A stretch of DNA of 64,000 nt from Candidatus Omnitrophota bacterium (GCA_041650935.1 JBAZKH010000001.1:9243-73242); one strand, 5' to 3'; shown: positions 12,121 to 63,874, counted from the stretch's first letter. The notes: generated from the letters alone by a model not told the origin. Made by a program: numbers and translations.

Positions 12121-12128
12121 TATCCGAC

Positions 12129-24733: not shown

Positions 24734-24737
24734 ATAT

Positions 24738-26731: not shown

Positions 26732-26740
26732 GGTGAAAAG

Positions 26741-34207: not shown

Positions 34208-34223
34208 TGGGCTGGAGTGTAAA

Positions 34224-34247
34224 ATCGTTTAAAACGTTTTAAACAAT
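34224..34247. promoter_or_regulatory. second copy (23/24) of the operator core ATCGTTTAAAACGTTTTAAAC(A/G)AT upstream of the MarR/GbsR-like regulator
   Basis: ATCGTTTAAAACGTTTTAAACAAT matches 18187-18210 except one base. Lies 16 nt upstream of the regulator's start codon. Confidence 0.45.
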
Positions 34248-34263
34248 ACTAAAGCGAGGTAAT

Positions 34264-34758: not shown

Positions 34759-34769
34759 CGAAAGGCGCG

Positions 34770-48054: not shown

Positions 48055-49731
48055 GTGAAAAGACCTTTAAAGAACTTGCTTGTCTCCATAGGTGCCGGTT
48101 ATCATCCTGCGGTCAGGAGCCTTCATGGCATGGTTAGAGAGATGAGTGACAGCCGGATACTTATCTTCCAGCTGGAAAAAACATCCGCTATTGGCGAGGA
48201 TCTGAGAGTAGATTGTTCAGTATCGTATAAGGATTTCCCCGGGGCATTCAAACTTTTTGAAGAATGGATTCTCAAGAACCGGTTCGAGCTTATAGGGATA
48301 AGCTTTATGTCTCATCACCGGGATATCTTTGTCGAGATGACGAGAATTATAAGGAAAGCGCTCCCCGGGTGTAAGATCATAGCCGGTGGCGTGCACGCAT
48401 GGTTGATAGATCCCGACAGGACTATCGAACATTGCGATTACGTCTGCGCGGGAGAGGGGGAGGAACTTTATAAAAATTTGCTGGAATCTCTTTCCGGCCC
48501 GGAAACCGGGCGCCCGCTGAGGCTGCCGGGATTGATGGAAAAATATGACGGGAATGTTATCCGTACACCTGTGAAAGAATATATGCCGATCGACGATCTC
48601 CCGGTTCCGACGATGGGCTCGGAGTATATCCATTACCTGTATTCAAAGGGCGATATTATTACTTTTAAGCAAGAGGATCCGCAGTTGAGCAATACATTCA
48701 GCTGCGTCCATATCGGCAGAGGGTGCCCGTTTAAGTGCACGTATTGCATAAACAGTCTCTTCCCCGAAAGGCGAAAAGTGCGCGTGAGGTCTGTTAATAA
48801 GGTCATAAGCGAGATAAAGAGGCTCCTGGGATTCAGGAAATTTGAGGCGTTTATATTTATGGATGAAATTTTTCCGTTGCAAGCGAGCTGGCTGGAAGAA
48901 TTCGCCGCGGCATACAAAAAAGAAGTGGGCGTTCCATTTGTCATTACGCTGTATCCCGGCATGTTGACCTATGAAAAAACAAAGCTCCTTAAAGAAGCGG
49001 GACTTAAAGAGGTTTCTATCGGTATCCAGAGCGGTTCGGAAAATATAAGGAAGAATGTTTACGAAAGGAGCGGTACTAATTCCAGGATACTCGAAGAAAA
49101 CGAGATGCTTTCAAAACTAGGGATAATGACATATTATGATTTTATAATTAAAAACCCATTTGAAAAAGAGGCCGACTACCGGGATAGTCTTGAGCTGGTA
49201 AGCAGCCTGAAGAGGCCGTTCTATCTGAAGTTTCATACGCTTGCTTATTATCCTAGGCATCCGATAACGGATATGGCTTTGGGCCATAAACTTATCGATG
49301 AGGGAGATATCAGCGCTACCATAGGGTATCTCGATGTCAATACACCTCATAAAGTAGCGATAGTGGATCATTACCCAGTGGAAAGAAATCTTCTCTTCTG
49401 GAATGCCAAGCTTAGGAAAGAGATGAGTTGCGGGCACACGGACTCTTCCTACTGGTTATTGGCATCTTATTATGGGTATTGGTATATGCCGAAATTTATT
49501 CTGGAAGCTGTCAAGAGGCAGTATTTAAAGGGCGGTAGGCGGGCCTTGAACATACTTTCCTCGATAGTCCAGTTTACGCTTGTAATCCGCAATAATATAT
49601 TTAGCAAGAAAGTCAATATTGCAGTTTGCATGTATAAGCAAAGAGGCCCGGTATTCGTGATGGACGAGATAAGGATGAAGATATTGCGGAGCATAAAACA
49701 GGGGCGTTATGGCAAAAAAACAAATTGTTAA
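48055..49731 (+). CDS. cobalamin-binding (class B) radical SAM enzyme #5
   Basis: GTG start. B12-binding N-domain (..IIAGGVHAW..), GRGCPFKCTYCIN. 558 aa. Confidence 0.7.
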   Translation: MKRPLKNLLVSIGAGYHPAVRSLHGMVREMSDSRILIFQLEKTSAIGEDLRVDCSVSYKDFPGAFKLFEEWILKNRFELIGISFMSHHRDIFVEMTRIIRKALPGCKIIAGGVHAWLIDPDRTIEHCDYVCAGEGEELYKNLLESLSGPETGRPLRLPGLMEKYDGNVIRTPVKEYMPIDDLPVPTMGSEYIHYLYSKGDIITFKQEDPQLSNTFSCVHIGRGCPFKCTYCINSLFPERRKVRVRSVNKVISEIKRLLGFRKFEAFIFMDEIFPLQASWLEEFAAAYKKEVGVPFVITLYPGMLTYEKTKLLKEAGLKEVSIGIQSGSENIRKNVYERSGTNSRILEENEMLSKLGIMTYYDFIIKNPFEKEADYRDSLELVSSLKRPFYLKFHTLAYYPRHPITDMALGHKLIDEGDISATIGYLDVNTPHKVAIVDHYPVERNLLFWNAKLRKEMSCGHTDSSYWLLASYYGYWYMPKFILEAVKRQYLKGGRRALNILSSIVQFTLVIRNNIFSKKVNIAVCMYKQRGPVFVMDEIRMKILRSIKQGRYGKKTNC

Positions 49732-50836
49732 ATTCGCGATAATAGGCTGCGGCAGGATTTCGTACCGGCATATCGAGGCCATAAAGGCGAACGCCGGCGC
49801 CGAATTGATAGCGTTGTGTGACCTTAACGTGGATAAGGCTATCGAGAGGAATGCGGCGGCCGGGGTAAAGGTCTACCGGGATTATAACGAGATGCTTCAG
49901 AAAGAGGCGATAGATGTCGTCTGTATTATGACACCCAGCGGGATGCATGCCGAACACGCCATCGATATAATAAAAAAATACAAAAAACACATTGTGGTGG
50001 AAAAGCCGATGTCTTTAACGGTTGCAGGCGGCGTGAAACTTATAAAAACAGCCAAAGCCGGCGGTGTTAAATTATTTGTAGTCCATCAGAACCGTTTTAA
50101 CAGGGCCGTGCAGAAGGTAAAGACGGCTATAGATGATAACGCTTTCGGCAAAATAACTCTAGGCACGGTCAGGATCCGCTGGTCGCGGGGCCAGAAATAT
50201 TACGACCGTGATCCGTGGCGCGGCACATGGGCGCTCGATGGAGGCGTCCTTACGAACCAGGCAATTCACCATATCGATCTTTTGCAGTGGCTTGCCGGCG
50301 GGATCGACAGCGTCTCTGCCATAGGCGCTACTCAGCTCGTCGATGTCGAGGTGGAAGATACGGCATGCGCGTGGCTTAAATTCAAAAATGGCGCGTTGGG
50401 TATTATCGAAGCGACTACAACAGCAAGGCCCATAGACAAAGATCTGGAGGCATCTATATCGATCCTGGGAGCCAAAGGCGCGGTGATCGTCGAAGGCGCT
50501 TCCGTAAACCGCCTGACTACGTGGACCTTTGGCGATATAGACCTGAAAGAGTATTCCGAAAACCCGCCGAACGTCTATGGCTACGGGCATAATAACATAA
50601 TCGATAATGTCGTGGAGGTATTGACGAAAGGCGGTGAGCCGCTGGTAAGAGGAGAAGCAGCCCTCGATTCGATAAAGTTGCTGCATGCGCTATACAGGTC
50701 TATGGAACTGGGCGGCAAAGAGGTCAATCTGAGCGATAACCCCGTTTCGGCGAAGCTCGGTCTTTTCGATAAGACCAGCGAGCCCATAGTGAATCTGTAT
50801 AGGACGGATATGGTCCTCGAGGTAAAGAGAGCATGA
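49709..50836 (+). CDS. Gfo/Idh/MocA-family NAD(P)-dependent oxidoreductase (WbpB/WlbA-like sugar 3-dehydrogenase family)
   Basis: KFAIIGCGRISYRHIEA... N-terminal Rossmann plus the MocA C-domain. 375 aa. Confidence 0.7.
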   Translation: MAKKQIVKFAIIGCGRISYRHIEAIKANAGAELIALCDLNVDKAIERNAAAGVKVYRDYNEMLQKEAIDVVCIMTPSGMHAEHAIDIIKKYKKHIVVEKPMSLTVAGGVKLIKTAKAGGVKLFVVHQNRFNRAVQKVKTAIDDNAFGKITLGTVRIRWSRGQKYYDRDPWRGTWALDGGVLTNQAIHHIDLLQWLAGGIDSVSAIGATQLVDVEVEDTACAWLKFKNGALGIIEATTTARPIDKDLEASISILGAKGAVIVEGASVNRLTTWTFGDIDLKEYSENPPNVYGYGHNNIIDNVVEVLTKGGEPLVRGEAALDSIKLLHALYRSMELGGKEVNLSDNPVSAKLGLFDKTSEPIVNLYRTDMVLEVKRA

Positions 50837-51795
50837 AAAAATACATCGTAACGGGCGGAGCGGGATTCATAGGTTCGAACCTTACCGCGAGGCTTTTAAA
50901 AGACGGCGCAAAAGTCTATGTTATAGACGATCTGTCGACAGGTTTTAAAAGGAATGTGCCTAGGGGCGCCGAATTTTTTAAAGCGGACATAAGTAATTTT
51001 CGCGAACTGAAGGATCTTGATATCCCTGGAAACATAGATGCGGTCTTTCATCTTGCGGCCCAGACATCCGGCGAGGCCTCTTTTGACGACCCTGCAAGGG
51101 ATGTGGAGGTAAACCATAAAGGCACTTACAATGTATTGAAACTTGCGCAGGCCAAAGGATGCGGGAAATTCATATATACAAGCTCTATGAGCGTCTATGG
51201 CGAAGTAAAAAAGACCTCCGGCAAGGTTAGCGAGGGCGACGAATGCCGTCCGGTATCTTATTACGGATGTAATAAGCTTGCGTCCGAAAAACTGATAGAA
51301 GTATTTGCGAAAAATACGGGAATGAAAACGGTTGTGTTAAGGCTCTTTAACGTATATGGTCCCGGGCAGAATATGCTGAATATGAAGCAGGGTATGGTGA
51401 GCATATATATGTCCTATCTCCTTAATAGCAGGCCGGTGCACGTGAAGGGCGGCCTGGACAGGTTCAGGGATATCGTCTATATAGACGATGTAATCGATGC
51501 CCTTATGCTATGTGAAAGTAACCGTAAACTTTGCGGGGAAATTCTTAATATCGGGACCGGCAGGCGGACGACTGTCCGCCGGTTGCTCGAAGTCATGCTG
51601 AAAGCCTATGGGCGAAAGGATTTTCCCGCTTGGGTACGCTGCAGCGGCAATACGCCCGGAGATGTAAAAGGATGTTTTGCGGACACAAAAAAGACGGTCA
51701 GGCTTCTTGGGTGGGAGCCAAAATACGATCTAAAAGAAGGTGTATGCCGTATGAAGACATGGGCCGAGGGGACGATAAGATGGTGGCAAAGATAA
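50833..51795 (+). CDS. NAD-dependent epimerase/dehydratase (SDR)
   Basis: [23 protein letters not shown]. 320 aa. Confidence 0.75.
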   Translation: MKKYIVTGGAGFIGSNLTARLLKDGAKVYVIDDLSTGFKRNVPRGAEFFKADISNFRELKDLDIPGNIDAVFHLAAQTSGEASFDDPARDVEVNHKGTYNVLKLAQAKGCGKFIYTSSMSVYGEVKKTSGKVSEGDECRPVSYYGCNKLASEKLIEVFAKNTGMKTVVLRLFNVYGPGQNMLNMKQGMVSIYMSYLLNSRPVHVKGGLDRFRDIVYIDDVIDALMLCESNRKLCGEILNIGTGRRTTVRRLLEVMLKAYGRKDFPAWVRCSGNTPGDVKGCFADTKKTVRLLGWEPKYDLKEGVCRMKTWAEGTIRWWQR

Positions 51796-52691
51796 TGAAC
51801 GTTTGTAATGTTGTATGTAATCTATGCGGCTCCAGGAATTACGGTGAGATCAAAAAGGGCGTATACGGCAACGCCGCGCAGAATATCTACAAATGCGGCG
51901 CCTGCGGCCATTTCTTCCTCGGGCCGCTTCTGGACGATGCCGAAGAGGAGAGGTTTTACATAGAAGACTATCCGGCGTTCCTTCTGAAGAGGGGTGATTT
52001 TAAAAATACTACGCCGGAGGACCATTTCATCAAGAATGAAAAAGAAGCCCGGCGCAGATTCGGGCTGATCAAGTACCTGCTGGCGAAAGGGCAGAGCGTC
52101 CTCGAAATAGGTTCGGCAAGCGGTTTTTTCTTAAGCAAGATAAAACCCCGCGTGGAAGAAGTCTTCGGGATCGAACCCAATACGGCTTACAGGGAGTATG
52201 CCAATAAAAAAGGTATACCGACCTGCCCGGATATAAAAGAATTGGGTCATAGGAAGTTCGATATTATATTTCTGTATTATGTGCTTGAACATATAAAGGA
52301 CCCGAACGGGTTTTTAAAGCACGTTAAGCATTTTTTAAAGAGTTCAAAGTCCAGGATCGTTATAGAGGTGCCGAATGTCGACGAAGCGCTTGTGTCGTTA
52401 TACCATTCTCCGGCATATAACGAATTTGTCTGGCAGAGGGCCCACTGCAGTTATTTTTCTGCGCTCACCATGGAAAAGTTATTTAAAAGGTCCGGGCTAA
52501 AGGCTAAGTTTATACCCGAGCAGAGATATGATATTTCGAACCACATATATTGGCTCGCAGAGTGCAAACCGGGCGGCGCCGGCAAGTATGCGCATATATT
52601 TTCCGGGGCCCTGAATAGAAAATATGCCGATGATTTGAAGGACAAATGGCTATGCGATACTATTTTGGCCGTCGCGCAGCCTACACGATAA
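51795..52691 (+). CDS. zinc-ribbon-containing class I SAM-dependent methyltransferase (resembles NDP-sugar C-/O-methyltransferases)
   Basis: CNLCGS...CGACGH N-terminal CxxC pairs, then VLEIGSASGFF motif I. Start chosen at ATG 51795 (TAATG overlap). The longer track ORF from 51630 overlaps the upstream SDR. Confidence 0.5.
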   Translation: MNVCNVVCNLCGSRNYGEIKKGVYGNAAQNIYKCGACGHFFLGPLLDDAEEERFYIEDYPAFLLKRGDFKNTTPEDHFIKNEKEARRRFGLIKYLLAKGQSVLEIGSASGFFLSKIKPRVEEVFGIEPNTAYREYANKKGIPTCPDIKELGHRKFDIIFLYYVLEHIKDPNGFLKHVKHFLKSSKSRIVIEVPNVDEALVSLYHSPAYNEFVWQRAHCSYFSALTMEKLFKRSGLKAKFIPEQRYDISNHIYWLAECKPGGAGKYAHIFSGALNRKYADDLKDKWLCDTILAVAQPTR

Positions 52692-52704: not shown

Positions 52705-54207
52705 ATGAAAGTATTACTGGTATATCCCAATATGCATGGCATGAATATGCTGCCGTCGGCTATCGCGCTCTTTAGCAGCATACTGAAAGCGCAAGGCCAT
52801 AAAATCGATCTCTTCGATTCCACCAACTGGATGATCCCCGGAGAAGAAGATTTCGACAGCGATAAGGTCAAAGAGCGAAATCTCAACGTCAGGCCTTTCG
52901 ACGATTCGAAACTAAGATCGGAGATGAGACAGACGAACCTCTTCGACGATTTTAAGAAAAAAGTTGCCGGCTTCAATCCCGACCTTATGGCCGTTTCGGT
53001 GAGCGAGGACATATTTCCTATAGGCATCAGATTGCTCGAAACGGTCCGCAGTTTGAATATCCCCACGATCATGGGCGGCGTCTTCCCGACATTTGCGCCT
53101 GAACTTTGTCTTTCGTATGAAGATGTGGACATGGTATGCGTCGGGGAAGGCGAGAGGGCTATCGTGGAACTTTGCGCTAAGATGGAACGGGGAGAACCGT
53201 TCGATAACATAAATAATATATGGGTGAAATCGAACGGCTCGATAAAGAAGAATCCGATGGGCCCGTTAAATAATATGGATGAGAATCCACAGCTCGACCT
53301 GAGCCTCTTCGACAGCTCCCGCCTCTACAGGCCCATGCAGGGAAAAGTCTGGAAAATGGTGCCCGTCGAAACGCACAGGGGCTGTCCTTACCAATGCGCG
53401 TATTGCAACTCTCCGGCGCAGGCCGAACTTTACAGGCGCGAGACCGGCGGTAAGTATTTCAGGAAGAAATCCTTTGCCGCGGTCAGAAAGGATCTGCTCT
53501 ATTTCAGGGACGTTATCAAGGCCGAAGCGTTCTACTTCTGGGCCGATACGTTCATGACCTACAATGATTCCGAGTTTGAGGAGTTTATCGAACTCTATTC
53601 CGATATTAAACTGCCGTTCTGGTGCCAGGCGTTCCCGGAGACCATCAAAGAGGAGAGGATACGGCGGCTCATGAGTGTCGGCCTCTTCAGGCTCAGCAGC
53701 GGCGTCGAACATGGAAACGCGGATTTCAGGGTCAGGGTGCTAAGGCGCCGCGTAAAAAACGATGTAATGATAGAGCATTTTAAAATCCTTAATAAGTGCG
53801 GCCTCCCCTTCAGCGTCAATAACATCATGGGATTCCCGACGGAAACGCGAAAACTTGCGATGGAGACAGTGGAGGTCAACCGTTCCATAGATTCCGACGG
53901 CACGAATGCCTATACCTTTAGCCCGTTTCACGGCACACCGCTGCGGGCAATGTCCGAAAAGCTGGGATATATCGATTCCAAAACGATCGCCAGGTCCGCG
54001 ACCAAACAGAGCCTCTTGCGCATGCCGCAATTTACTCCCGCGGCTATCGAGGGCGTTAGAAGATGCTTTGTGCTTTACGTGAGGATGCCCAAAGATAAAT
54101 GGCCGGATATTGAGCGCGCGGAGAAACTGACGCCGGAGGGCGATAAGATATGGGCGGAGTTAAGGGACGAATGCGCGGAAAAGTATATGAGTTTCTCGGC
54201 CGGATAG
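52705..54207 (+). CDS. cobalamin-binding (class B) radical SAM enzyme #6
   Basis: MKVLLVYPNM..., HRGCPYQCAYCNS. 500 aa. Confidence 0.75.
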   Translation: MKVLLVYPNMHGMNMLPSAIALFSSILKAQGHKIDLFDSTNWMIPGEEDFDSDKVKERNLNVRPFDDSKLRSEMRQTNLFDDFKKKVAGFNPDLMAVSVSEDIFPIGIRLLETVRSLNIPTIMGGVFPTFAPELCLSYEDVDMVCVGEGERAIVELCAKMERGEPFDNINNIWVKSNGSIKKNPMGPLNNMDENPQLDLSLFDSSRLYRPMQGKVWKMVPVETHRGCPYQCAYCNSPAQAELYRRETGGKYFRKKSFAAVRKDLLYFRDVIKAEAFYFWADTFMTYNDSEFEEFIELYSDIKLPFWCQAFPETIKEERIRRLMSVGLFRLSSGVEHGNADFRVRVLRRRVKNDVMIEHFKILNKCGLPFSVNNIMGFPTETRKLAMETVEVNRSIDSDGTNAYTFSPFHGTPLRAMSEKLGYIDSKTIARSATKQSLLRMPQFTPAAIEGVRRCFVLYVRMPKDKWPDIERAEKLTPEGDKIWAELRDECAEKYMSFSAG

Positions 54208-54233: not shown

Positions 54234-55721
54234 ATGAAGGTTTTATTGGTTTACTGCAATACTATGCTGGAAAATGCGATACCCATTTCGGTTTCGCAGT
54301 TATCCGCGTGTTTAAAAAAAGCCGGCATAGACGTCGAACTGTTCGACACCACATTCTACCGCCATGGCGGGAAGAGCGCCATGGAAACACGTATATATGC
54401 CCTGCAGATAGCGCCATGTCCGCTTAACTTTACAGAGGGGGATATGGAGGCCGATTTTGTAAAGCGGATAAATGAGTATCAACCCGACCTGATAGGGCTT
54501 TCGGTGGTTGAACCGACATTCAACCTGGCCGGCAGGCTTTTAAAATGCGCAAAAGAGGTGATAGGGCGGGAAAAGATAAAGGTGGCGGTGGGAGGGGTCC
54601 ACACCATACTTGCTCCCCAGACCATGTTGAAGGCGGAGCCCGTAGATTATATCTCGATCAGCGAAGGCGAGATCGCTTTCGTAGAACTCTGCCGCAGGAT
54701 AAAGAAGGGTCAGGAGACTAAAGATACGCCGGGTTTCTGGGTAAAAGACGGCGATCGATGGATAAAAAATCCGCCGGCTCCGCTTGTCGATATAAATGCC
54801 CTGCCGGGCCTCGACCTGTCTATATTCTCGGAATCATACCTTAATAAGCCTATTATGGGCAGGCTCTACAGGACGATCTCGATAGAGACTACGAGGGGAT
54901 GTCCTTACCATTGCTCGTATTGCGCCGACCAGTCGCTTACCGAACTCTTCAGGTCTTCCGGCAGATGGTACCGCCAGAAGACGATGGAGCGCGTAGAGGC
55001 CGAGCTTAAAGAATCCGTTGCGGCTTACAACCCGGAATTCCTGTATATAATGTCGGAATCGTTCCTTTCCGGGAGCGTGGAGCGCGTAAAAGCCTTTGCC
55101 GATAGCTACCGCGCTTTTTCCACGCCGTTCTGGTTCAATACCAGGCCGGAGGACATTACGAGCGAAAAGGTGAAGATCATCAAGGATATCGGCTGTAAAA
55201 GGATAAGCATAGGCCTGGAGCACGGCAACGAAGAGTACAGAAAAAAATATTTCTATCGCAACTATTCCAACGAGACATTTAAAAAGGCGTGCCGGGTGTT
55301 GAGAGAATACGAGATACCGTTCTCCGTCAATGTTATCCTGGGCGCGCCTTATGACACAAGGCCAATGGTCTTTGAGGCCATCGACCTCTTGCGCGAAACA
55401 AAACCGGACGGCGTAAGCACGTGCATCTTCAACCCTTATTACGGGTCGCACTTAAGAAAAGTATGCCTGCAGGAGAATATGATCGCGCCGGACCTTATAG
55501 CCGCCGATGTCTTCCAGTTCGAATATTGCCTTACAAACAACACTATTTCGAAAGATGCGGTCTTCGGGCTCTTCAGAACTATACCGCTTTATATGGAAAT
55601 GGGCCGGGGTGAAGAATCACGCATAGCGGCGGCGGAGAAACTTGACGACCATGGCAACAAAGTCTTCGAGGAGCTGAGAAAAGAATTTTATAAGATCAAA
55701 GGATGGCAGGATAACGGATAA
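54234..55721 (+). CDS. cobalamin-binding (class B) radical SAM enzyme #7 (cassette A)
   Basis: MKVLLVYCNTMLENAIPISVSQLSACLKKAG..., TRGCPYHCSYCAD. 495 aa. Close paralogue of 57734-59227. Confidence 0.75.
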   Translation: MKVLLVYCNTMLENAIPISVSQLSACLKKAGIDVELFDTTFYRHGGKSAMETRIYALQIAPCPLNFTEGDMEADFVKRINEYQPDLIGLSVVEPTFNLAGRLLKCAKEVIGREKIKVAVGGVHTILAPQTMLKAEPVDYISISEGEIAFVELCRRIKKGQETKDTPGFWVKDGDRWIKNPPAPLVDINALPGLDLSIFSESYLNKPIMGRLYRTISIETTRGCPYHCSYCADQSLTELFRSSGRWYRQKTMERVEAELKESVAAYNPEFLYIMSESFLSGSVERVKAFADSYRAFSTPFWFNTRPEDITSEKVKIIKDIGCKRISIGLEHGNEEYRKKYFYRNYSNETFKKACRVLREYEIPFSVNVILGAPYDTRPMVFEAIDLLRETKPDGVSTCIFNPYYGSHLRKVCLQENMIAPDLIAADVFQFEYCLTNNTISKDAVFGLFRTIPLYMEMGRGEESRIAAAEKLDDHGNKVFEELRKEFYKIKGWQDNG

Positions 55722-55724
55722 AAA

Positions 55725-57725
55725 ATGGCGACTCTGATAATATTCGACTCATCGGTATGCGGAAAAGAGGCTTCTGCGGTAAAATTGCCGGGAAAGACGG
55801 ACGAGGCAGTCCTCTTTCCGCTTACATCCGACAGCGGGATAACGTCGGAATTCTTCAATATGGTTACAGCGGCAGGTTTTAAAGCCCGCTTATTGGACAC
55901 AGCAGGCCTGATAAACTCGGCGGCAGAAGAGCTGAGGGGCAGGTATTTGAAATTCATAGCCGACATGCCGGATAATGTCATTGCGGGCAATAAGAATATA
56001 AAAGAGATGTTCGCCTTGGACGGCGACACATCGTTATGGTGGCTTAGCCTTGTTGCCGGCAAAAGCAATTTTAAATCTATCGCGTTTAACAGTATTGCCC
56101 AGCTGGACGCGATGATAAAAGCGATAGGTGATAACGGTATAGATAATGCAGTATACGCCGGCCGTGACCATACGCTGAGGAAATCTTTCTTAGAATATTG
56201 CAGAGAGAAGCGAATATTGGTTAAGTGTCTGCCCGGCGCCGGATTTAAGGATATCCTCGACGGGGCGCTTCAATGGAAGCCGGTTGTATACCTCGGGCAT
56301 ATCTATTTTCTATTCAGGGCCGCGGCGGGATTTTTGGTCAGGATGTCAAGAGCGCGGAATATGGCGTCGAGGGCAGGCGGACCCGGCAGGGTAAAGCCGG
56401 GCTTTGAACATCCGATGCTCATAACCTATTATCCTGTAATAGACACAGCGCTTGCCGGGCAGGGCATATTCAAAAATATCCATTATGACTACATCCAGGA
56501 GGCGCTGGAATCTAAAGGCCAAAAACCGGTTTGGGTCGCCCTGTATCTTAAAAATCCGGCGGTCTCGCACGCCGAAGCCGTTAAATATGCCGAAAAATTT
56601 ATCAAGAACGGATATTCTATCTACATGCTTGACGAATTCGGATCCGTTCGAAGCCATCTGGCGGCTTTCCTGCGGATAATATCATTCGGGATGAAATTTT
56701 TGTTTTACGAAAGGTCCATAGCAAAGCTGCATGATCTCGGTGGTTACAATGTGTATGATTTTTTGAAAAATGACTGGTATTCATCTTTCTGCGGGTCGGC
56801 GGGTTATAGCGCCATCCTATATTACGAGATGTTTAAATCGATGTTTGCGGCCTCGCAGTACAAAAAATGTTTCTTCCAATGCGAGATGCAGCCGTGGGAG
56901 AAGGCGCTCATAAGCGCCAGGAATTTCCTGGGAAGTTCCTCCTGCCTGGTTGGGTATCAGGCCGGGGTTCCGGCAAGAATGCTTTTAGGATGTTTCAACC
57001 ATCCTGCGGAATTCAGGCGGGATTGCCGGTATCCGATGCCCGTCCCGGACAAATATGTATGTAACGGCAATGTCACATTTAACAACCTGAAGGAGTGCGG
57101 TTGGCCGGAAGATACATTAGGTATAGTCGAGGCGGTCCGCTATAACTATCTAAAGAGATATTTGGAATCGAGATGGGATAAGAAAAGAAAAGTCGTCCTG
57201 CTCCTTTTTTCGATAAGCGTGCACGAATCGAGCGCCATATTAAATACGGCTTACCATGCTTTAAAAGGGCTTGACGGCGTGGAGGTATGGATGCGTCCGC
57301 ACCCGTTTATAAGTATCGAGAGCGTGCTGAAACAGTCCGGCCGCGGCATAAACGATATACCGTTTGTGATCAAAGACGGGCCGCTCGCTGACTCTCTCCG
57401 TGAGGCGAGGATAGTAATAGGGGGCGAATCCGGCACGTGTGTAGAAGCCCTGGCCTTCGGCTGTAATGTCGTTCTGGTCAATAACCCGGAATGGATCAAT
57501 ATGTCGTCTTTGAAGCACGAAAAATCCGGCAATATTAAAACGGCCGGCTCGGCGGAAGAGCTTAAGAGTATCGTTACCGGGATACTGGCGCAAGCGTATG
57601 ACCCCGGAGTATTGAAAAAAGAGTCGGCCAGGATAATAGGGAATTATTATTATCTCGATCCCGCTTCGGATACGCCTTCAAGGATACTGGAGCTCTTGAC
57701 GCCGTTTGAGGCTAAGAAAGGATAG
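55725..57725 (+). CDS. large hypothetical protein (666 aa) with GT-B-like C-terminal segment (cassette A)
   Basis: C-terminal ...ARIVIGGESGTCVEALAFGCNVVLVN resembles the E..G helix of GT-B glycosyltransferases/2-epimerases. Paralogue of 59228-61213. Confidence 0.45.
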   Translation: MATLIIFDSSVCGKEASAVKLPGKTDEAVLFPLTSDSGITSEFFNMVTAAGFKARLLDTAGLINSAAEELRGRYLKFIADMPDNVIAGNKNIKEMFALDGDTSLWWLSLVAGKSNFKSIAFNSIAQLDAMIKAIGDNGIDNAVYAGRDHTLRKSFLEYCREKRILVKCLPGAGFKDILDGALQWKPVVYLGHIYFLFRAAAGFLVRMSRARNMASRAGGPGRVKPGFEHPMLITYYPVIDTALAGQGIFKNIHYDYIQEALESKGQKPVWVALYLKNPAVSHAEAVKYAEKFIKNGYSIYMLDEFGSVRSHLAAFLRIISFGMKFLFYERSIAKLHDLGGYNVYDFLKNDWYSSFCGSAGYSAILYYEMFKSMFAASQYKKCFFQCEMQPWEKALISARNFLGSSSCLVGYQAGVPARMLLGCFNHPAEFRRDCRYPMPVPDKYVCNGNVTFNNLKECGWPEDTLGIVEAVRYNYLKRYLESRWDKKRKVVLLLFSISVHESSAILNTAYHALKGLDGVEVWMRPHPFISIESVLKQSGRGINDIPFVIKDGPLADSLREARIVIGGESGTCVEALAFGCNVVLVNNPEWINMSSLKHEKSGNIKTAGSAEELKSIVTGILAQAYDPGVLKKESARIIGNYYYLDPASDTPSRILELLTPFEAKKG

Positions 57726-57733
57726 GCGAAAAG

Positions 57734-59227
57734 ATGAAGATACTGCTTGTATATTGTAACGCCATGCTGGAGAATGCGACGCCGATGTCGATTTCGCAGT
57801 TATCCGCGTGCCTGAAACAGGCGGGTATGACGGTGGAACTATTCGATACGACATTTTACCGCTATGGCGGCAAGAGCGCCATGGAGAACCGGATCGAGGC
57901 GCTGCAGATAGCGCCGTGTCCGCTGAATTTTATCGAGGGCGATATAGAAGAGGAATTCGTAAAGAAGATAACCCGGTTCCAGCCCGACGTGATCGGGTTT
58001 TCGGTAGTAGAGCCGATGTTTGGCCTTATGACGAGGCTTATGAAGTGCGCGCAAGAGGTGATAAAGAAGAATAATATAAAAGTAGCGGTGGGGGGCGTCC
58101 ACGCCATACTTGCCGCGGAAACTTTCCTGGGCGAAGAGATGATAGATTATATTTCGATCAGCGAAGGCGAAACGGCTTTTGTGGAACTGTGCCGCAGGAT
58201 AGAAAAAAAGATGAGAACCGACGATGTGGCCGGATTCTGGGTAAAACAGGACGGACTCTGGATAAAGAACGGGAAAGCGCCGATCGTCGATATAAATAAC
58301 CTGCCGAGCCTCGACCTGTCCATATTCTCGGAGTCGTATCTGAACAAGCCTATGATGGGGAGATGCTACCGGACGATCTCGGTCGAGATAACGCGGGGAT
58401 GCCCTTACAACTGTTCATACTGTGCCGACAGGACGCTGACGGAGTTATTCAAGGCCTCGGGCAGATGGTACAGGCAAAAGACTATGCAGAGGATAGAGGC
58501 CGAGTTTAAGGAATTGATAGCGTTATATAACCCGGAGTTCGTATATATCATGTCCGAGTCGTTCCTCTCCGGCAGTATAAAACGGATCGCCGAATTTGCC
58601 GACATGTACCGCAAGTTTTCCATACCGTTCTGGTTCAATACGAGGCCTGAAGATATAACCGAGGAGAAGGCGCGGCTTATAAAAGAGATCGGATGTAAAA
58701 GGATAAGCATAGGCCTGGAGCACGGCAACGAGGCGTATAGGAAAAAATTTATGTATCGCAACTATTCGAACGAAACTTTTAAACGGGCATGTGGGATACT
58801 GACGGATTGCGGCATATCGTTCTCGGTCAATCTTATCATAGGCGTTCCTTTCGATACGCGGGAGATGATATTTGAAGCTATCGATCTATTGCGCGAGGCC
58901 GGGCCGCAGGGAGTAAGCACTTTTATTTTCAGCCCGTATCATGGGTCGGACTTAAGGGGAGTGGCCGCGAGAGAGCGGATGATAAAACCGGACCTTATAG
59001 CGGGAGATTATTTCCAGCTCGATTATCAACTGACCAATAATACTATCTCGGAGGAGGAGGTCTTCGGCATGTTCAGGACGATACCTCTCTATATCGAATT
59101 GGATAAAAAAGAGTTTCCGCGCATCAAAAAGGCGGAAAAGTTCGACCGGGCGGGTGATGAGGCTTTCGCGGAGCTTAGGGGAGAGTTCTATAAAATGAAA
59201 GGCTGGCAGCTGCCTCAAAAGGTATAA
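57734..59227 (+). CDS. cobalamin-binding (class B) radical SAM enzyme #8 (cassette B)
   Basis: MKILLVYCNAMLENATPMSISQLSACLKQAG..., TRGCPYNCSYCAD. 497 aa. Confidence 0.75.
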   Translation: MKILLVYCNAMLENATPMSISQLSACLKQAGMTVELFDTTFYRYGGKSAMENRIEALQIAPCPLNFIEGDIEEEFVKKITRFQPDVIGFSVVEPMFGLMTRLMKCAQEVIKKNNIKVAVGGVHAILAAETFLGEEMIDYISISEGETAFVELCRRIEKKMRTDDVAGFWVKQDGLWIKNGKAPIVDINNLPSLDLSIFSESYLNKPMMGRCYRTISVEITRGCPYNCSYCADRTLTELFKASGRWYRQKTMQRIEAEFKELIALYNPEFVYIMSESFLSGSIKRIAEFADMYRKFSIPFWFNTRPEDITEEKARLIKEIGCKRISIGLEHGNEAYRKKFMYRNYSNETFKRACGILTDCGISFSVNLIIGVPFDTREMIFEAIDLLREAGPQGVSTFIFSPYHGSDLRGVAARERMIKPDLIAGDYFQLDYQLTNNTISEEEVFGMFRTIPLYIELDKKEFPRIKKAEKFDRAGDEAFAELRGEFYKMKGWQLPQKV

Positions 59228-61213
59228 ATGAGAACCCTTGTGATTTTCGACTCTTCAAAAACTATCCTGGCGCGTCGCTCGCGCGCGTTTTCCGCCGGCG
59301 ATACGGCATACCTATTCCCGATGAACGTGGACAAACGCTCGCTGGAGGGAACAGCCGGGGTATTAAAAAGCGCCGGCTCAAAAGTCGAAGTTATAGATAC
59401 CGGCAGGTTGATAAACGATACGGCGGAGGACTTGAGGCTGAAATATGTCAAATTTATCGCAGAGCTTCCCGGGAGGGTCTCTTACCGGGGGAAAAATCTA
59501 AAGGAGCTCTTTGCCGTAGACGATACCGCGTCGCTATGGTGGTACAGCCTGGTTGCCGAAAAATGTACTTTCAAATCCGACGCGTTTAACAGTATCGTCC
59601 AGTTCAATTCTATAATCAAAATAATAGAGGAAAAGCAGATAGAAAGGATATTGTACGGTTGCGATGATTATATCCTTGGAAAAGAGCTTCTTCGATATTC
59701 AAAAGAGCATTCGATAGCGGCGGAAACGATAGCGGTCAGGACCTTAAAAGAGACCGCGCGCAATGTTTTTAAGTCCGGCATATTCGTTTATCTCAAACAT
59801 ACGGCATTGCTTTTTATCGGCAGCCGGAAGACCTTTTTGGACATGTACAGGATCAAACGGGCCTACGGCAAGGTGCAAGCGCCGGTTCCCGCGGCCGGAA
59901 AATCGATTTTTGTAACTTATTATCCGGCCTTCGATATCCGGCAGGCCGATAAAGGCATATACGTAAACAGCAATTATCCGTATTTGCAGGAAGCTCTGAA
60001 ATTACGCCGCGCGGAGATTACGTGGGTGGCGCTTTATGTCCAGCATGCAACAATACCTTTTGCGGACGCCCTGGGATATTGGAAAAGATTCGCCGGCAAC
60101 GGTTACAACATAGTCTTCGTGGACAATTTCTTTTCCGCGCGGATGCATATCAATACATTGTTCCCGGTCCTCGTCAACGGCTTTAAGCTATTATATTACA
60201 GAAAACGGATCAAAGGGGCCCATGAGTTCGAGGGCCATAATGTCTATGGCTTTTTGAAGAACGACTGGTATGCGTCTTTTGCCGGGTTTACCGGGTATAC
60301 AGGTTTGCTATATTACCGCCTTTTCAGGAGCATCCTGGGAAAAGTAAAAGGGCAGGTGTGCGTATATCCATTCGAGATGCACTATTGGGAGAAGGCTATC
60401 GTAGATGCAAGAAATTCCATCAAATCGCAAACAGCCCTTTTTGCATATCAACCGGCCGGCATATCGCGGATGTCGTTGAATTATTTCAATCATCCGCTTG
60501 AAATAAACGCGAACGGGCCGTATCCAATCCCGGTGTCGGATAAGCTCTTATGCGACGGGCCTATAACCAGCGGTTATCTTAAAACGTCCGGCCGGGATGC
60601 CGGCAGCCTGGAGATCGTCGAAGCGATAAACTACTACCATCTTCGAAGATATTTTTCCGATAATGTAAAAGAGAAAAAGGATGAGGTGCTGATACTATTA
60701 TCCATCCATCCGAAGGAGAGCCGTTCACTGCTCATGGCAGCTTATGAAGCATTTAAAGATTCCGGGGATGTCCGTGTCCTGGTCAAGCTCCACCCGTATT
60801 TAAATTTAAACGAAACCCGTAAACTGCTGAAAAAGGCGGTCAATGGTATACCTTTTCCGGTCAAGGCGGGGCCTATCGACAAGTGTTTGTCGGAGGCGAG
60901 GATAGTAATAGCCGGAGAAACGACCGCCTCAATCGAGGCTTTGGCGTATGGATGCGAAGTAATAAATGTCGATTCGCCCGATTGGATCAATATGTCTCCC
61001 TTAAAGACCATGGCATGTCCGGTTGTCAGGACTGTCAGGTCTCCCATTGAACTGCGGCAGGCGGTCTTAAGCATATTCAGCAGAAGATACGACCCGGCAG
61101 CCAATTTTTCCGAGGCGCGGAAGATAATAGAAGGTTTTTTCTACCTGGGCGACAAGATAAACGTACCAGAAAGATTTGTGAACTTGATCTATTCGGAGAG
61201 CATGCGCGGATGA
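59228..61213 (+). CDS. large hypothetical protein (661 aa) with GT-B-like C-terminal segment (cassette B)
   Basis: Shares N-terminus (M.TL.IFDSS), LWW.SLVA.K..FKS.AFNSI.Q, GYN.VDFLKNDWY.SF.G and C-terminal ARIVIAGETTASIEALAYGCEVINV blocks with 55725-57725. Confidence 0.45.
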   Translation: MRTLVIFDSSKTILARRSRAFSAGDTAYLFPMNVDKRSLEGTAGVLKSAGSKVEVIDTGRLINDTAEDLRLKYVKFIAELPGRVSYRGKNLKELFAVDDTASLWWYSLVAEKCTFKSDAFNSIVQFNSIIKIIEEKQIERILYGCDDYILGKELLRYSKEHSIAAETIAVRTLKETARNVFKSGIFVYLKHTALLFIGSRKTFLDMYRIKRAYGKVQAPVPAAGKSIFVTYYPAFDIRQADKGIYVNSNYPYLQEALKLRRAEITWVALYVQHATIPFADALGYWKRFAGNGYNIVFVDNFFSARMHINTLFPVLVNGFKLLYYRKRIKGAHEFEGHNVYGFLKNDWYASFAGFTGYTGLLYYRLFRSILGKVKGQVCVYPFEMHYWEKAIVDARNSIKSQTALFAYQPAGISRMSLNYFNHPLEINANGPYPIPVSDKLLCDGPITSGYLKTSGRDAGSLEIVEAINYYHLRRYFSDNVKEKKDEVLILLSIHPKESRSLLMAAYEAFKDSGDVRVLVKLHPYLNLNETRKLLKKAVNGIPFPVKAGPIDKCLSEARIVIAGETTASIEALAYGCEVINVDSPDWINMSPLKTMACPVVRTVRSPIELRQAVLSIFSRRYDPAANFSEARKIIEGFFYLGDKINVPERFVNLIYSESMRG

Positions 61214-62055
61214 GGAGCTGGTATAAATATTTCATAAACTATAATACCGAAGAGAAGATTGTTGCGAAGGACGCAAGCTTTGCAGACCATAAAAAATCTA
61301 TGGAAGGATATAGTTCTGCCAAAGGCTATGGTTCGAAAGAGGATTTTTTCCGGACGCATTTTTTAAACGCCCACCCTAGGCATAGGTATTACCATGATTA
61401 CCTGCGCACGCATCTCAATAAGGCGGACAATATACTTTCTATCGGTAGCGGCCGGTGTGTTAACGAATTACTGCTAGCGGAGGAAGGTTTCAGTATAACG
61501 TGTTCTGACCTTGAACAGCCGTGCATGGGCGAGACAGCGCGGCTTTTCCCCGGGATGCGTTTTATGAAATACGACGTAACGAAAGGGCCGGTGGAAGACA
61601 AATTCGATTCAATAATCTGTTTAAGCATATTCTATCTTTTTGACAAAACCATGCTCGCGGAGGTCTTCAGGAACGTGTCCGACAGCCTGAAGCCGGGGGG
61701 CAGTTTTATCGTAGACCCGTGTGGCGCCGAAAACAACGTCTGGACACGCATCATCGACGATATCATATGCCCGTTGGAAATGGTGCTGATAATGTTTTTG
61801 AAGCGTTTGACGGGAAAACGGCGTTGTATCGTTACCAAAAAGCACCAGGGCTACAGGACTACCAATGCCGAATTGACGGCGATAGCCGGAAAAGCGGGCT
61901 TTCGCCTGCGCAGTATCGAGAAATATGACCATTTTACGGAATTCGGCATGAGGAGCAACTTTTTTAGCAGGTTGCCGAAAGGCATTGTAAGGCTTTTTGG
62001 TAGAGGAGCTCCTTATGTGCGCATGATTAGCTTCGAAAAAAACTTAACGGAGTAA
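61210..62055 (+). CDS. class I SAM-dependent methyltransferase
   Basis: ILSIGSGRCVNE motif I-like, LKPGGSFIV. 281 aa. ATGA overlap upstream. Confidence 0.55.
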   Translation: MRSWYKYFINYNTEEKIVAKDASFADHKKSMEGYSSAKGYGSKEDFFRTHFLNAHPRHRYYHDYLRTHLNKADNILSIGSGRCVNELLLAEEGFSITCSDLEQPCMGETARLFPGMRFMKYDVTKGPVEDKFDSIICLSIFYLFDKTMLAEVFRNVSDSLKPGGSFIVDPCGAENNVWTRIIDDIICPLEMVLIMFLKRLTGKRRCIVTKKHQGYRTTNAELTAIAGKAGFRLRSIEKYDHFTEFGMRSNFFSRLPKGIVRLFGRGAPYVRMISFEKNLTE

Positions 62056-62059: not shown

Positions 62060-63127
62060 ATGCCAGAAATAAAAAAATACTTAAAGGATCTTCATCGTAC
62101 CAATCCGGCCGAAGCGCTACGGAAGGGCCGGATGCGGCTCGATATGAACGAAGGTGTCCACGGCCTTCCCGATGGATTCGTGCGGTCCGTAGCGGGTAAG
62201 ATCGACAATAAGCTTATGTTGACATATCCCGCATGCGCCGGACTATTGAAGAAGATCGCCCGGCATAACGGGATCAGGCCGGAGAATATATGCCTGGGCA
62301 ACGGCTCGGATGGCGTCATAAAGTATATATTCGATGCGTACATTTCCCCTAACGATAAAGTATTGCTGACTAACCCGACTTTTGCCATGTATCCGATATA
62401 TTGCAGGATCTCCGACGCAAAGCCGGTAGTAATCGATTATAAACCCGACCTGACATTCCCTTTCGAGGAATTCATCGGCAAGCTTAAGCGGGGTGTTAAG
62501 ATGGCGGTAGTCGTAAACCCTAACAACCCTACGGGTGATGTGATCGACCCGGACAGGATGGTTTATATGATCAGGCACGCCGCGCAGAATGATATTCTGA
62601 TGGTTGTCGACGAGGCGTATTTCTACTATTATCCGGAAACGGTGATAAAACTTGTCGCTAAATATGACAATCTGATAATCCTCAGGACTTTTTCCAAGCT
62701 GTGCGCCATGGCTAATGTGAGGATAGGTTATGCCGCCGCGGCGCCTTCCGTGATCCGAAATATAAAAAAAGTGAAGCCTTCGTTCGATGTTAACGGCCTA
62801 GCGGTGTTATTTACATCCGAACTTCTCGACAGGCCCGCAATAATATCGGCTATGACGAAAAAAGCCAGGGCGGGCGGTGATTATCTTTGCAGAATGCTTA
62901 AAAGGGCCGGCATAGAGCACAGGGGAGGCAATACTAACTTCATCCTGATAAAGTGCGGCAGCCGCGCGGGCGAGATAGTGAAGAAACTTAAATCCCGCGG
63001 GATCTTGGTCAGTGGTAATTTCAGCCAACCGTTCCTGAAGGATTATTTACGCGTTACCATCGGAGATAAGTCCCAAATGGCGCATTTCTGGAAAACTTTT
63101 GTTTCTATCTGGAGGCGTACGAAGTAG
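62060..63127 (+). CDS. class I/II PLP-dependent aminotransferase (histidinol-phosphate aminotransferase/HisC-like family)
   Basis: NPNNPTGDVI, TFSKLCAMANVRIGY (PLP-Lys motif). 355 aa. Confidence 0.65.
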   Translation: MPEIKKYLKDLHRTNPAEALRKGRMRLDMNEGVHGLPDGFVRSVAGKIDNKLMLTYPACAGLLKKIARHNGIRPENICLGNGSDGVIKYIFDAYISPNDKVLLTNPTFAMYPIYCRISDAKPVVIDYKPDLTFPFEEFIGKLKRGVKMAVVVNPNNPTGDVIDPDRMVYMIRHAAQNDILMVVDEAYFYYYPETVIKLVAKYDNLIILRTFSKLCAMANVRIGYAAAAPSVIRNIKKVKPSFDVNGLAVLFTSELLDRPAIISAMTKKARAGGDYLCRMLKRAGIEHRGGNTNFILIKCGSRAGEIVKKLKSRGILVSGNFSQPFLKDYLRVTIGDKSQMAHFWKTFVSIWRRTK

Positions 63128-63142: not shown

Positions 63143-63874
63143 ATGCGCAAGGCAGTCTTTCTCGATTTTGACGGTGTATTGTTCGATACGGTAAAAGAGG
63201 CTTACTATATCGCTATGCTCGCTTCAGGCAAAGCCGAGTCCGCGGACGATATCGATTTCAATTCGGAGCATTATGCGAAGTTTAGAAAATACAGGTTTTT
63301 GATAACGAAAGCCCCGGATTATTATTATCTGCTCAAAGCTATAGATAAAAGAAACGGGATGCCCGGCATATACAGCGCGCTTCTTGGGACCGATAAAGCG
63401 GGCGAGGAGAAGTTTAAAAGGAAGTATTTTGCACGGCGCAAGTCATTTAAAACCAAGAACCGCGATTTCTGGCTTTCATTGAATACGCCGTATGTTTTTT
63501 TTCACCGTATCAGGTATATAGTCGGGCGAAAGCCGGAAGTGTTTTTCATAATAACGACGAAGGACAAGGATACGGTGATCGACCTGCTAAAGATCCAGGG
63601 GATCAGGTTTTTTAAAAGAAACATCTTTGACTTGAGCGCCGGAGACGTTTTTAGATCAAAAAGAGAGGCCATACTATTTGTGTGCGGGAAATATAGGGTG
63701 AAGAGGAGCTTGTATATAGATGATTCTGCGTACCACCTTGCGCAGGCATCGGGAATACCGGGTATGGATATATTGCAGGCCGGATGGGGATACGCGGGCG
63801 GATCAAAAAATACCGCCGGCGAATCGGAGGCCCTGGCTAGGATAGAAAAATTTTTCGGAGGTAAAAATGTATAA
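63143..63874 (+). CDS. HAD-superfamily hydrolase/phosphatase
   Basis: VFLDFDGVLFDT DxDG motif I. 243 aa. Confidence 0.55.
   Translation: MRKAVFLDFDGVLFDTVKEAYYIAMLASGKAESADDIDFNSEHYAKFRKYRFLITKAPDYYYLLKAIDKRNGMPGIYSALLGTDKAGEEKFKRKYFARRKSFKTKNRDFWLSLNTPYVFFHRIRYIVGRKPEVFFIITTKDKDTVIDLLKIQGIRFFKRNIFDLSAGDVFRSKREAILFVCGKYRVKRSLYIDDSAYHLAQASGIPGMDILQAGWGYAGGSKNTAGESEALARIEKFFGGKNV

Follow-up and report, generated by a model that had tools for sequence, protein, structure and literature searches.

Two tandem cassettes of B12-binding radical SAM and putative GT-B-fold glycosyltransferase genes in a probable surface-glycan locus of Candidatus Omnitrophota

Tailoring of sugars by radical S-adenosylmethionine (SAM) enzymes is known from antibiotic pathways, where GenK and GenD1 perform C-methylation in gentamicin synthesis and AprD4 performs a B12-independent deoxygenation in apramycin synthesis. 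For bacterial cell-surface glycans, no described case was found, and the literature searched contained nothing linking radical SAM enzymes to the tailoring of nonulosonic acids or O-antigens. Here, we analyzed a 64,000-nt stretch of DNA from Candidatus Omnitrophota bacterium (GCA_041650935.1, JBAZKH010000001.1:9243-73242; hereafter, the window), in which two consecutive cassettes (54234-57725 and 57734-61213) each encode a class-B (B12-binding) radical SAM protein (rSAM-A, rSAM-B) and a large protein of about 660 amino acids (aa) (Big-A, Big-B), with a further class-B gene, rSAM0, just upstream. GenK, GenD1, and AprD4 resemble these radical SAM proteins (rSAMs) in their N-terminal B12-binding domain, their radical SAM core with a CxxxCxxC motif, and their carbohydrate-pathway context. 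However, the known enzymes tailor secondary-metabolite aminoglycosides, whereas the window rSAMs are found in a cell-surface glycan locus and form a large family of their own. Our preferred reading, to which we give a probability of roughly 0.45 as a whole, is that Big-A and Big-B are paralogous transferases of the glycosyltransferase (GT)-B fold that use a cytidine monophosphate (CMP)-ulosonate-type donor, that the rSAMs are coupled B12-dependent tailoring enzymes, and that the cassettes arose by ancient tandem duplication within part of a very large biosynthesis operon for a surface glycan of the O-antigen or capsule type.

For Big, the closest described family is TIGR04326 (O_ant_LIC13510, "surface carbohydrate biosynthesis protein"), which has no assigned activity and occurs in the same surface-glycan setting. 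Both proteins matched its model end to end and collinearly (residues 62-615 to model positions 19-572 of 602), with 198.7 bits and E = 1.5e-58 for Big-A and 175.2 bits and E = 1.8e-51 to 2e-52 for Big-B. Since the cutoff of 250 bits was not reached, we class them by score as divergent superfamily relatives of TIGR04326 rather than as formal members; nevertheless, these matches mean that the large proteins, which the preliminary description of the window had called unknown, are not entirely so. In the BFO_1060 family, Tannerella Tanf_01245 is a genetically proven pseudaminic/legionaminic-acid transferase that has a TagB/GT-B domain and a His-Pro (HP) motif, and CMP-Pse5Am7Gra is fully modified before its transfer in this organism (PMC5420450). 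Tanf_01245/BFO_1060 and the capsule proteins KpsC/KpsS (Capsule_synth) are similar to Big in the GT-B fold, in a His-Pro pair that follows a β-strand in the C-terminal Rossmann domain, and in weak C-terminal hidden Markov model (HMM) similarity. However, Big is ~200 aa longer, contains an extra N-terminal domain, and shows marginal similarity to them (17 versus 200 bits for NF046086; E = 0.007 for Capsule_synth). KpsC comprises two tandem transferase modules of different linkage specificity, a possible parallel to Big-A and Big-B. Transferases for nonulosonic acids or 3-deoxy-D-manno-octulosonic acid (Kdo) are comparable in another respect, namely the genomic association of Big with CMP-ulosonate cytidylyltransferases. 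Finally, the TagF-like Cps3D (8qoy) was the best structural match of the Big model in the PDB (E = 2e-9, 476 aligned columns), and it acts in surface polymer assembly, as Big is predicted to do. The template-modeling (TM) score was 0.31 query-normalized and 0.22 target-normalized with 10% identity and no Glyphos_transf signal, and the activating enzymes near Big are of the CMP-sugar type rather than the cytidine diphosphate (CDP)-polyol type of TagF-like systems. The components are of known kinds, GT-B superfamily proteins and class-B rSAMs. That they recur together in the surface-glycan loci of uncultured anaerobes seems not to have been described before.

All five genes are on the + strand. 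rSAM0 (500 aa, 52705-54207), which belongs to a distinct subfamily, is followed by rSAM-A (495 aa, 54234-55721), the upstream copy of the duplicated pair, and Big-A (666 aa, 55725-57725), the divergent copy of the putative glycosyltransferase. These are followed by rSAM-B (497 aa, 57734-59227), the downstream copy, which has orthologues in other organisms, and Big-B (661 aa, 59228-61213), the conserved copy. As the preliminary description had stated, cassettes A and B share the same organization, and they were collinear with an exact 3,500-nt period. The rSAM-A and rSAM-B proteins were 71% identical over 492 aa without gaps (E = 0), and Big-A and Big-B were 38% identical over 660 aa (E = 1e-159), in line with the earlier view that the rSAMs are homologous over their whole length and that their large partners are related but more diverged. 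The gene at 52705, pointed out earlier as a third paralogue, encodes a protein 31% identical to rSAM-A over its full length (E = 3e-89), although the number of class-B rSAMs in the window is eight and not three. At the DNA level, identity was ~75% across the rSAM genes, and the Big genes shared only one 47-nt patch. The homology of the two cassettes is far beyond chance.

The genes in the cassettes were separated by gaps of 0-8 nt or overlapped. An AGGAGG Shine-Dalgarno sequence was found upstream of rSAM-A, 3 nt separated the rSAM-A stop from the Big-A start, the rSAM-B stop adjoined the Big-B start (TAAATG), and the Big-B stop overlapped the start of the next gene, MT61. Promoter-like and terminator-like sites were no more frequent than in shuffled sequence, which, together with this spacing, fits a single long operon with translational coupling.

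Next, the age of the duplication was analyzed by the comparison of synonymous and nonsynonymous sites that the preliminary description had proposed. Synonymous sites were near saturation, with a proportion of synonymous differences (pS) of 0.67 for the rSAM pair and 0.76 for the Big pair, and copy B was closer to orthologues in organisms having a single cassette, indicating that the duplication is ancient. A recent duplication or gene conversion was rejected on the basis of these pS values, a longest exact DNA match of 38 nt, and even divergence along the genes. The nonsynonymous divergence (dN) was 0.21 for the rSAM pair, with a dN/dS of ~0.13, and 0.62 for the Big pair. The rSAM copies have thus been under purifying selection since the split, which suggests that they perform the same chemistry. 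The duplication had been taken as a sign of diversification of the reaction or the substrate; this agrees with the strongly diverged transferase but not with the conserved rSAM, so diversification after the split would lie in transferase specificity rather than in radical chemistry, and the duplication proved to be old with a complex history.

In trees with sparse sampling, copies A and B were sisters with bootstrap values of 100% (rSAM) and 74% (Big). With deeper sampling, Big-B formed a 100%-bootstrap clade with P0031 and a protein of locus L065 (60% identity; P and L numbers denote retrieved proteins and compared loci, respectively). The closest relatives of rSAM-B were P0065-P0068 (74-76% identity), and rSAM-A was basal (69%) within a 100%-bootstrap clade comprising rSAM-A, rSAM-B, and P0065-P0068. 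In L065 and L064, the gene order was rSAM0-like, rSAM-B-like, Big-B-like, and MT61-like, corresponding to the window minus cassette A. No orthologue of cassette A was found among the proteins retrieved, and the best match of Big-A outside the source genome showed 45% identity.

These trees also bear on a mosaic origin of cassette A, in which the rSAM alone was duplicated and Big-A came from another lineage of the family through recombination between hypervariable glycan loci, for example of the rSAM0 - Big - MT61 type. Such an origin would account for the ~40% identity of Big-A and Big-B in every domain, which equals that of either to a random family member. It would also account for the divergence values: for the rSAMs, the A-B divergence (29%) is close to that between B and its orthologue (24%), whereas for Big the A-B value (62%) far exceeds the B-to-orthologue value (40%). 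Moreover, the neighbor-joining neighbor of Big-A, P0018 (paired with it in 39% of bootstraps), is encoded directly after an rSAM0 orthologue (79-80% identical to that of the window) without an A/B-type rSAM, and the gene order around Big was highly modular across loci. Nevertheless, Big-A and the Big-B clade fell within a group of at most 7 of the 78 tips in 71 of 100 bootstraps; this clade-size criterion was used since the strict sister criterion, which gave 31%, is too strict where P0018 pairs with Big-A. The 74% sister relationship under sparser sampling and the exact 3,500-nt register with identical gene order also fit duplication of the whole unit, and evolution has been somewhat faster in both Big lineages than is typical of the family, which may have eroded the signal. 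We keep the mosaic origin as a live, although less likely, alternative; the alignments and trees favor duplication of the whole unit long ago, after which the putative transferase diverged strongly.

To describe Big itself, domain searches, family alignment, and structure prediction were employed. Neither Big-A nor Big-B showed a Pfam domain. Their homologues are named as TIGR04326-family proteins by JGI and NCBI, and the family comprised 1,786 representative clusters at E <= 1e-30. Its members occur in Omnitrophota, Nitrospirota (including Magnetominusculus), Planctomycetota, Desulfobacterota, Chloroflexota, and Clostridia. An AlphaFold2 (AF2) model of Big-A built on 59 sequences reached a predicted local distance difference test (pLDDT) score of 91.6 and a predicted TM-score (pTM) of 0.92. 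A Foldseek search of the PDB with this model gave 217 matches at E <= 0.001, and the top 50 were all GT-B-fold enzymes, beginning with 8qoy and continuing with glycogen synthase, UDP-N-acetylglucosamine (UDP-GlcNAc) 2-epimerases, and GT4 enzymes. The guess of a GT-B/TagF-like fold in the preliminary description is therefore supported by the model. Given the moderate TM-scores, the fold class can be regarded as secure, but not the subfamily.

In the alignment of the 59 family members, a His-Pro pair was conserved (H526 in at least 90% and P527 in 100%) within the consensus evW.kpHPfl, which follows the strand 520-524 of the C-terminal Rossmann domain. Such a pair, placed in the nucleotide-binding domain, is a feature of the HP-motif CMP-sugar transferases (bacterial sialyl-, Kdo-, Pse-, and Leg-transferases). 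Similarly, E387 and E392 were invariant within cEM.aWEKAL and are candidate catalytic residues from their conservation, and no D/E-D/E-G motif was recognized. Among the 58 columns conserved at 90% or more, Big-A keeps 53, including H526-P527, and Big-B keeps 50; because nearly all family-conserved residues are retained, both copies look functional. Individual members showed weak matches to Capsule_synth (8 of 59, the best being marginal at E = 0.007), to DUF6716 ("putative glycosyltransferase"), and to Glycos_transf_1, and the C-terminal part of Big-B weakly matched TIGR04396 and the BFO_1060 glycosyltransferase family (NF046086). In addition, P0372 (969 aa) is a natural fusion of a full-length Big domain (1-651) to a C-terminal GT family 2 (GT2) domain (PF00535, 105 bits), and a separate GT2 gene follows Big in L069. 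P0372 was the sole fusion found, and no fusion of an rSAM to Big, which would have hinted at a physical complex, occurred among the 63 Big matches, the best 120 rSAM matches, and the best 150 family representatives. The predicted GT-B fold, the HP motif, the weak matches to glycosyltransferase families, the Big-GT2 fusion, and the GT2 gene in L069 together make a glycosyltransferase role of Big likely.

Two other roles of Big were weighed against the same data. Big may be a TagF-like polymerase or phosphotransferase that forms a phosphodiester-linked (teichoic-acid-like or group-2-capsule-like) polymer from CDP-polyols or sugar phosphates, with the rSAMs modifying the polymer or its precursor. 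In the TagF family, too, a GT-B-like fold contains catalytic His residues; moreover, the top Foldseek match was a TagF-like capsule polymerase multienzyme, and the rSAMs scored 71-85 bits against models of PhpK-type P-methyltransferases. However, Glyphos_transf (PF04464) matched none of the 59 members even at E = 1, leaving the structural match to 8qoy as the one similarity to the TagF type. The PhpK scores did not exceed the BchE and HpnJ scores, each of them lying far under its cutoff, and the cytidylyltransferases near Big are of the CTP_transf_3 type (CMP-ulosonate, KdsB- or PseF-like) and not of the TagD/IspD type that produces CDP-glycerol or CDP-ribitol. We therefore regard this role as improbable. 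Slightly less probable still is a role other than transfer, in which Big would be a nucleotide-sugar 2-epimerase or hydrolase of the GT-B fold, similar to NeuC/WecB, and would provide the hexosamine precursor for the ulosonic acid pathway, with the rSAM acting on the product. Most of the top 50 Foldseek matches were UDP-GlcNAc 2-epimerases including NeuC, with target-normalized TM-scores of 0.55-0.60, and the module is set among sugar-nucleotide tailoring genes. Yet a weak Epimerase_2 match was obtained for only 1 of the 59 members, and Big, with 660 aa, has an extra N-terminal α/β domain and a long helix in the model that are absent from the 370-aa epimerases. Moreover, the natural Big-GT2 fusion as well as the HP motif and the weak Capsule_synth, BFO_1060, and Glycos_transf_1 matches point to transfer.

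We then compared the gene neighborhood of Big across ~145 related loci (61 from species-representative genomes, 8 around specific proteins, and 80 metagenomic), which were mapped with the window proteins and with an HMM for the cytidylyltransferase. In the close clade, defined by a Big at least 33% identical to those of the window, two independent collections gave similar counts: in both, 23 of 31 loci had an rSAM of the rSAM0/A/B family within 8-9 kb of Big, and it lay within 300 bp in 14 of 31 and 17 of 31 loci, respectively. Where at least 1.6 kb of upstream sequence was available, an rSAM adjoined Big in 14 of 21 close-clade loci, roughly two-thirds. The co-localization expected in the preliminary description is thus found elsewhere, and the proposed conserved pairing stands as a frequent arrangement; it is, however, neither obligate nor specific to the A/B-type rSAM, and the cytidylyltransferase is the more constant companion of Big. 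An A/B-type rSAM adjoined Big in L004, L010, L017, L024, L065, L069, and L079, and an rSAM0-type in L001, L007, L019, L026, L066, and L068. The triple rSAM0-type, A/B-type, and Big was observed in L004, L010, L017, L024, and L065, and L069 has a methyltransferase gene between its two rSAM genes. rSAM0 was the more widely conserved partner of Big compared with the A/B type, and its orthologues (59-80% identity) were beside or near Big in L005-L009, L014, L019, L062, L065, and L066.

The rest of the module recurs as well. MT61 homologues (53-65% identity) were directly downstream of Big in L019, L064, L065, L066, L067, L068, and L090, and MT51 homologues were directly upstream of rSAM0-type genes in L008, L009, L014, L019, L062, L066, and L068. 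Aminotransferase homologues were present in 26 of the first 69 loci, and the recurrent set comprised a Gfo/Idh/MocA oxidoreductase, an epimerase, a methyltransferase, a HisC-like aminotransferase, a 2-hydroxyacid dehydrogenase, a haloacid dehalogenase (HAD) hydrolase, and MT61 after Big. L062 showed the order oxidoreductase, epimerase, MT51, rSAM0, and rSAM as in the window with 57-76% identity (76% for rSAM0 and 74% for the B-type rSAM); it has no adjoining close Big, and a 25%-identical relative is located 5 kb downstream.

With respect to the donor, a CTP_transf_3 cytidylyltransferase was found within 8-9 kb of Big in 26 of 29 genomic and 15 of 25 metagenomic loci having at least 5 kb on both flanks; the same loci contained an rSAM in 13 of 29 and 10 of 25 cases (in total, 41 of 54 versus 23 of 54). 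The cytidylyltransferase was immediately upstream of Big in L018, L029, L032, L046, and L052. Those of L029 and L046 passed curated subfamily cutoffs for KdsB (CMP-Kdo synthetase), and those of the close clade were divergent and PseF-like. Because genomes usually contain just a handful of genes of this type, this association is strong and points to a CMP-activated donor. A PseF-like cytidylyltransferase gene was also observed beside a small radical SAM gene in L062 (2027-2773) and L069 (1-705), with a SPASM domain recorded in L069.

A second tandem Big was seen in none of the ~145 loci, indicating that multiplication of the cassette is not a general feature. Several loci had additional rSAM genes instead. 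In two metagenomic ones, L092 (about 2373-14000) and L093, a single Big lay amid four or five genes of the rSAM0/A/B family, and multiplication of the rSAM seems commoner than that of Big.

The chemistry of the rSAMs was examined through their domains and closest relatives. The PF02310 B12-binding domain scored 41.9, 52.3, and 51.5 bits in rSAM0, rSAM-A, and rSAM-B (gathering score 32.1), and the PF04055 Radical_SAM domain scored 57.9-84.3 bits (57.9 in rSAM0; gathering score 29.5). All three contain the CxxxCxxC motif as CPYQCAYC, CPYHCSYC, and CPYNCSYC at residues 223-227, the first being that of rSAM0 at 227. By these domains, they are class-B rSAM enzymes. Of the candidates scored, 1,145 proteins matched the family at E <= 1e-30. 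As a side observation, JGI names close homologues (P0065, P0068, P0084, P0094, and others) BchE or "YgiQ"; the window rSAMs scored 84-97 bits against BchE, the anaerobic magnesium-protoporphyrin IX monomethyl ester cyclase, far below its cutoff of 481, so these names look like over-annotations. Methyl transfer is the activity of most characterized class-B rSAMs, among them GenK and GenD1, which act on sugars, and by analogy the cassette rSAMs are probably C-methyltransferases that tailor a sugar or its side chain.

Other radical chemistry is a serious, albeit less favored, possibility: with the role of Big unchanged, the rSAMs would catalyze dehydration or deoxygenation of a 1,2-diol (AprD4-like), epimerization, or C-C rearrangement (HpnJ- or BchE-like). 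The best PDB match of rSAM-A by sequence was AprD4 (6fd2, E = 2.6e-11), an aminoglycoside-sugar enzyme, the NCBIfam scores for HpnJ, BchE, and AprD4 were comparable to those for methyltransferases, and three ordinary SAM methyltransferases are already present in the module. On the other side, the precedents for class-B rSAMs are mostly methylating, as mentioned above, and the B12-binding domain exceeded the Pfam gathering threshold in all copies. No sequence feature examined discriminates methylation from the other chemistries.

Our preferred reading starts from what was directly established, namely the homology of the copies, their age and their order, together with the GT-B fold, the co-localization statistics, and the Big-GT2 fusion; its functional parts are what we infer from them. 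Big-A and Big-B would be paralogous GT-B-fold glycosyltransferases of the TIGR04326 (LIC13510-like) superfamily that most likely transfer a CMP-activated, heavily tailored sugar of the ulosonic-acid type (Kdo or nonulosonic-acid class) onto the growing glycan. A CMP-type donor is suggested by the CTP_transf_3 genes near Big, the passing of KdsB cutoffs in L029 and L046, and the cytidylyltransferase and NeuB-like genes of the window itself. rSAM0, rSAM-A, and rSAM-B would carry out tailoring in the same pathway. Most likely, they would be methyltransferases that depend on cobalamin and modify unactivated carbons in the sugar or its side chain, and each would be translationally coupled to the transferase handling its product. 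Tailoring may come before or after transfer, and the former has a precedent in the Tannerella donor modified before transfer (PMC5420450). An ancestral rSAM0 - rSAM - Big - methyltransferase arrangement would have gained a second rSAM-Big unit through the ancient tandem duplication. That the transferase copies are now as far apart as family members in general suggests that they differ in acceptor, linkage, or donor variant; the locus would then add two such residues, or form two linkages, rather than a single one.

Several observations weigh against this reading. Throughout its domains, Big-A (~0.4 identity) is no nearer to Big-B than to the average member of the family, so the sequences give only moderate support to a joint duplication of the Big gene. 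Both proteins scored below the TIGR04326 cutoff, the family profile of Big gave no significant match to any chain among PDB sequences, and the Capsule_synth and BFO_1060 matches were weak. In the Foldseek comparison, the target-normalized TM-scores were moderate (0.5-0.6), and UDP-GlcNAc 2-epimerases scored about equal to true transferases. The literature searched contained no mention of TIGR04326 or LIC13510. The cassette rSAMs reached no curated NCBIfam equivalog, with best scores of 84-97 bits versus cutoffs of 251-650 (BchE, HpnJ, HpnR, PhpK, AprD4, TIGR04013, and others), and their closest PDB sequence match, AprD4, is a non-methylating diol dehydratase that has a B12-binding domain but is not cobalamin-dependent; methylation is therefore only the commonest precedent. 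With regard to the donor, the PseF-like cytidylyltransferase subfamily usual near Big was not found in the window; it may lie beyond the end of the window, or the cytidylyltransferase gene at 34770 may take its place. NeuB homologues were seldom close to Big, in 3 of the first 69 loci, so a NeuB-Big association is not supported.

The case represents a new combination within glycan biosynthesis rather than a new kind of system. The Big and rSAM families, both without assigned function, recur together across several phyla of uncultured anaerobes, and assignment as a GT-B transferase for a CMP-activated sugar and a B12-dependent tailoring enzyme could give TIGR04326 its first functional annotation. 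If the reading holds, Omnitrophota, which probably live attached to host cells, would bear unusual C-alkylated acidic sugars on their surfaces. The two cassettes can also be viewed as a natural experiment, in which the specificity of a putative transferase diverges while its tailoring enzyme is held constant. A broader proposal, which we regard as tentative and less probable than the reading above, is that the unit of rSAM0, A/B-type rSAM, Big, and methyltransferase represents a widespread pathway, in which CMP-activated ulosonic-acid sugars undergo B12-radical alkylation at unactivated carbons and a dedicated TIGR04326-like family subsequently installs them in surface glycans. It would operate in anaerobic, mostly uncultured Omnitrophota, Nitrospirota (including magnetotactic Magnetominusculus), Planctomycetota, Desulfobacterota, and Chloroflexota. 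If so, a class of cell-surface sugar and a glycosyltransferase family would be new to biochemistry, and multiplication of the cassette would be one way to vary the surface.

The annotated genes of the window are all on the + strand, and the whole can be read as a single surface-glycan locus, with genes for an LptC-related protein, UDP-sugar dehydrogenases, RmlA/B/D-like enzymes, two DegT aminotransferases, Wzy-like and Wzx-like proteins, a thiamine pyrophosphate (TPP)-dependent E1 alpha/beta pair, a GHMP kinase, nucleotidyltransferases, a CTP_transf_3 cytidylyltransferase, a short NeuB-like synthase, AsnB, a carbamoyltransferase, and five genes with GT2 domains. Just upstream of rSAM0 lies the sugar-tailoring part of the module, with a Gfo/Idh/MocA oxidoreductase (49709-50836) and an NAD-dependent epimerase/dehydratase (50833-51795), both identified by Pfam, and the SAM methyltransferase MT51 (51780-52691), which had weak NCBIfam methyltransferase matches and whose start is uncertain (ATG at 51759 or 51780). 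Directly after Big-B, the class-I SAM methyltransferase MT61 (61210-62055; Pfam Methyltransf_25/11) is followed by a HisC-like class I/II aminotransferase (62060-63127; Pfam Aminotran_1_2, 243 bits against a hisC cutoff of 277) and a HAD-like hydrolase with a weak match (63143-63874).

The only clear CTP_transf_3 cytidylyltransferase within the window (34770-35465, + strand; 84 bits, weakly KdsB-like) is located 21 kb upstream of Big-A and is, by its domain, a candidate activator of the donor sugar. The NeuB-like open reading frame (ORF) (37329-38027, 232 aa) scored 200 bits against a NeuB_NnaB cutoff of 400 and covered model positions ~3-249 of 329; as it is without the C-terminal part of the model, it may be a truncated or a divergent short form.

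The eight class-B rSAM genes are at 14291-15736, 19399-20934, 28451-29902, 41515-42897, 48055-49731, 52705-54207, 54234-55721, and 57734-59227, and one non-B12 radical SAM gene (21920-23020), also on the + strand, matched SPASM-type families best. Except for the A/B pair, pairwise identity among the eight was 22-32%, and none reached a curated NCBIfam equivalog. Their density within a 64-kb glycan operon may be unusual. An Rfam search gave no match and hence no cobalamin riboswitch. The gene at 28451-29902 closes a block (23762-29902) that contains the TPP-dependent E1 alpha/beta pair, an epimerase, the GHMP kinase, a sugar-phosphate nucleotidyltransferase, and this B12-binding rSAM; blocks of this type resemble the antibiotic-pathway modules that build two-carbon-branched sugars.

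Two further large proteins of the window were compared with Big. The 719-aa ORF at 32048-34207, which matched no Pfam or NCBIfam family and did not resemble Big, was rejected as a relative. Its region is the only stretch of the window that shows negative GC skew together with strongly negative AT skew, and the 563-nt gap after it (34208-34769) is the largest between ORFs of at least 180 aa. The 585-aa orphan protein at 42894-44651 lies directly downstream of the class-B rSAM gene at 41515-42897 and thus forms a second kind of such pair. Its AF2 model (pLDDT 88.6) had a GT-B fold, and it was rejected as a third copy of Big, since hhalign gave a probability of 0.4% with single sequences and 1% profile to profile. 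In homologues of this protein, PF27859 is recorded as a precomputed Pfam domain; it was absent from the results of the local Pfam scan of the window. The trio of this rSAM, the 585-aa protein, and a Wzx-like flippase was kept in Candidatus Magnetominusculus (L006, 773-5500), with 61, 41, and 45% identity, respectively.

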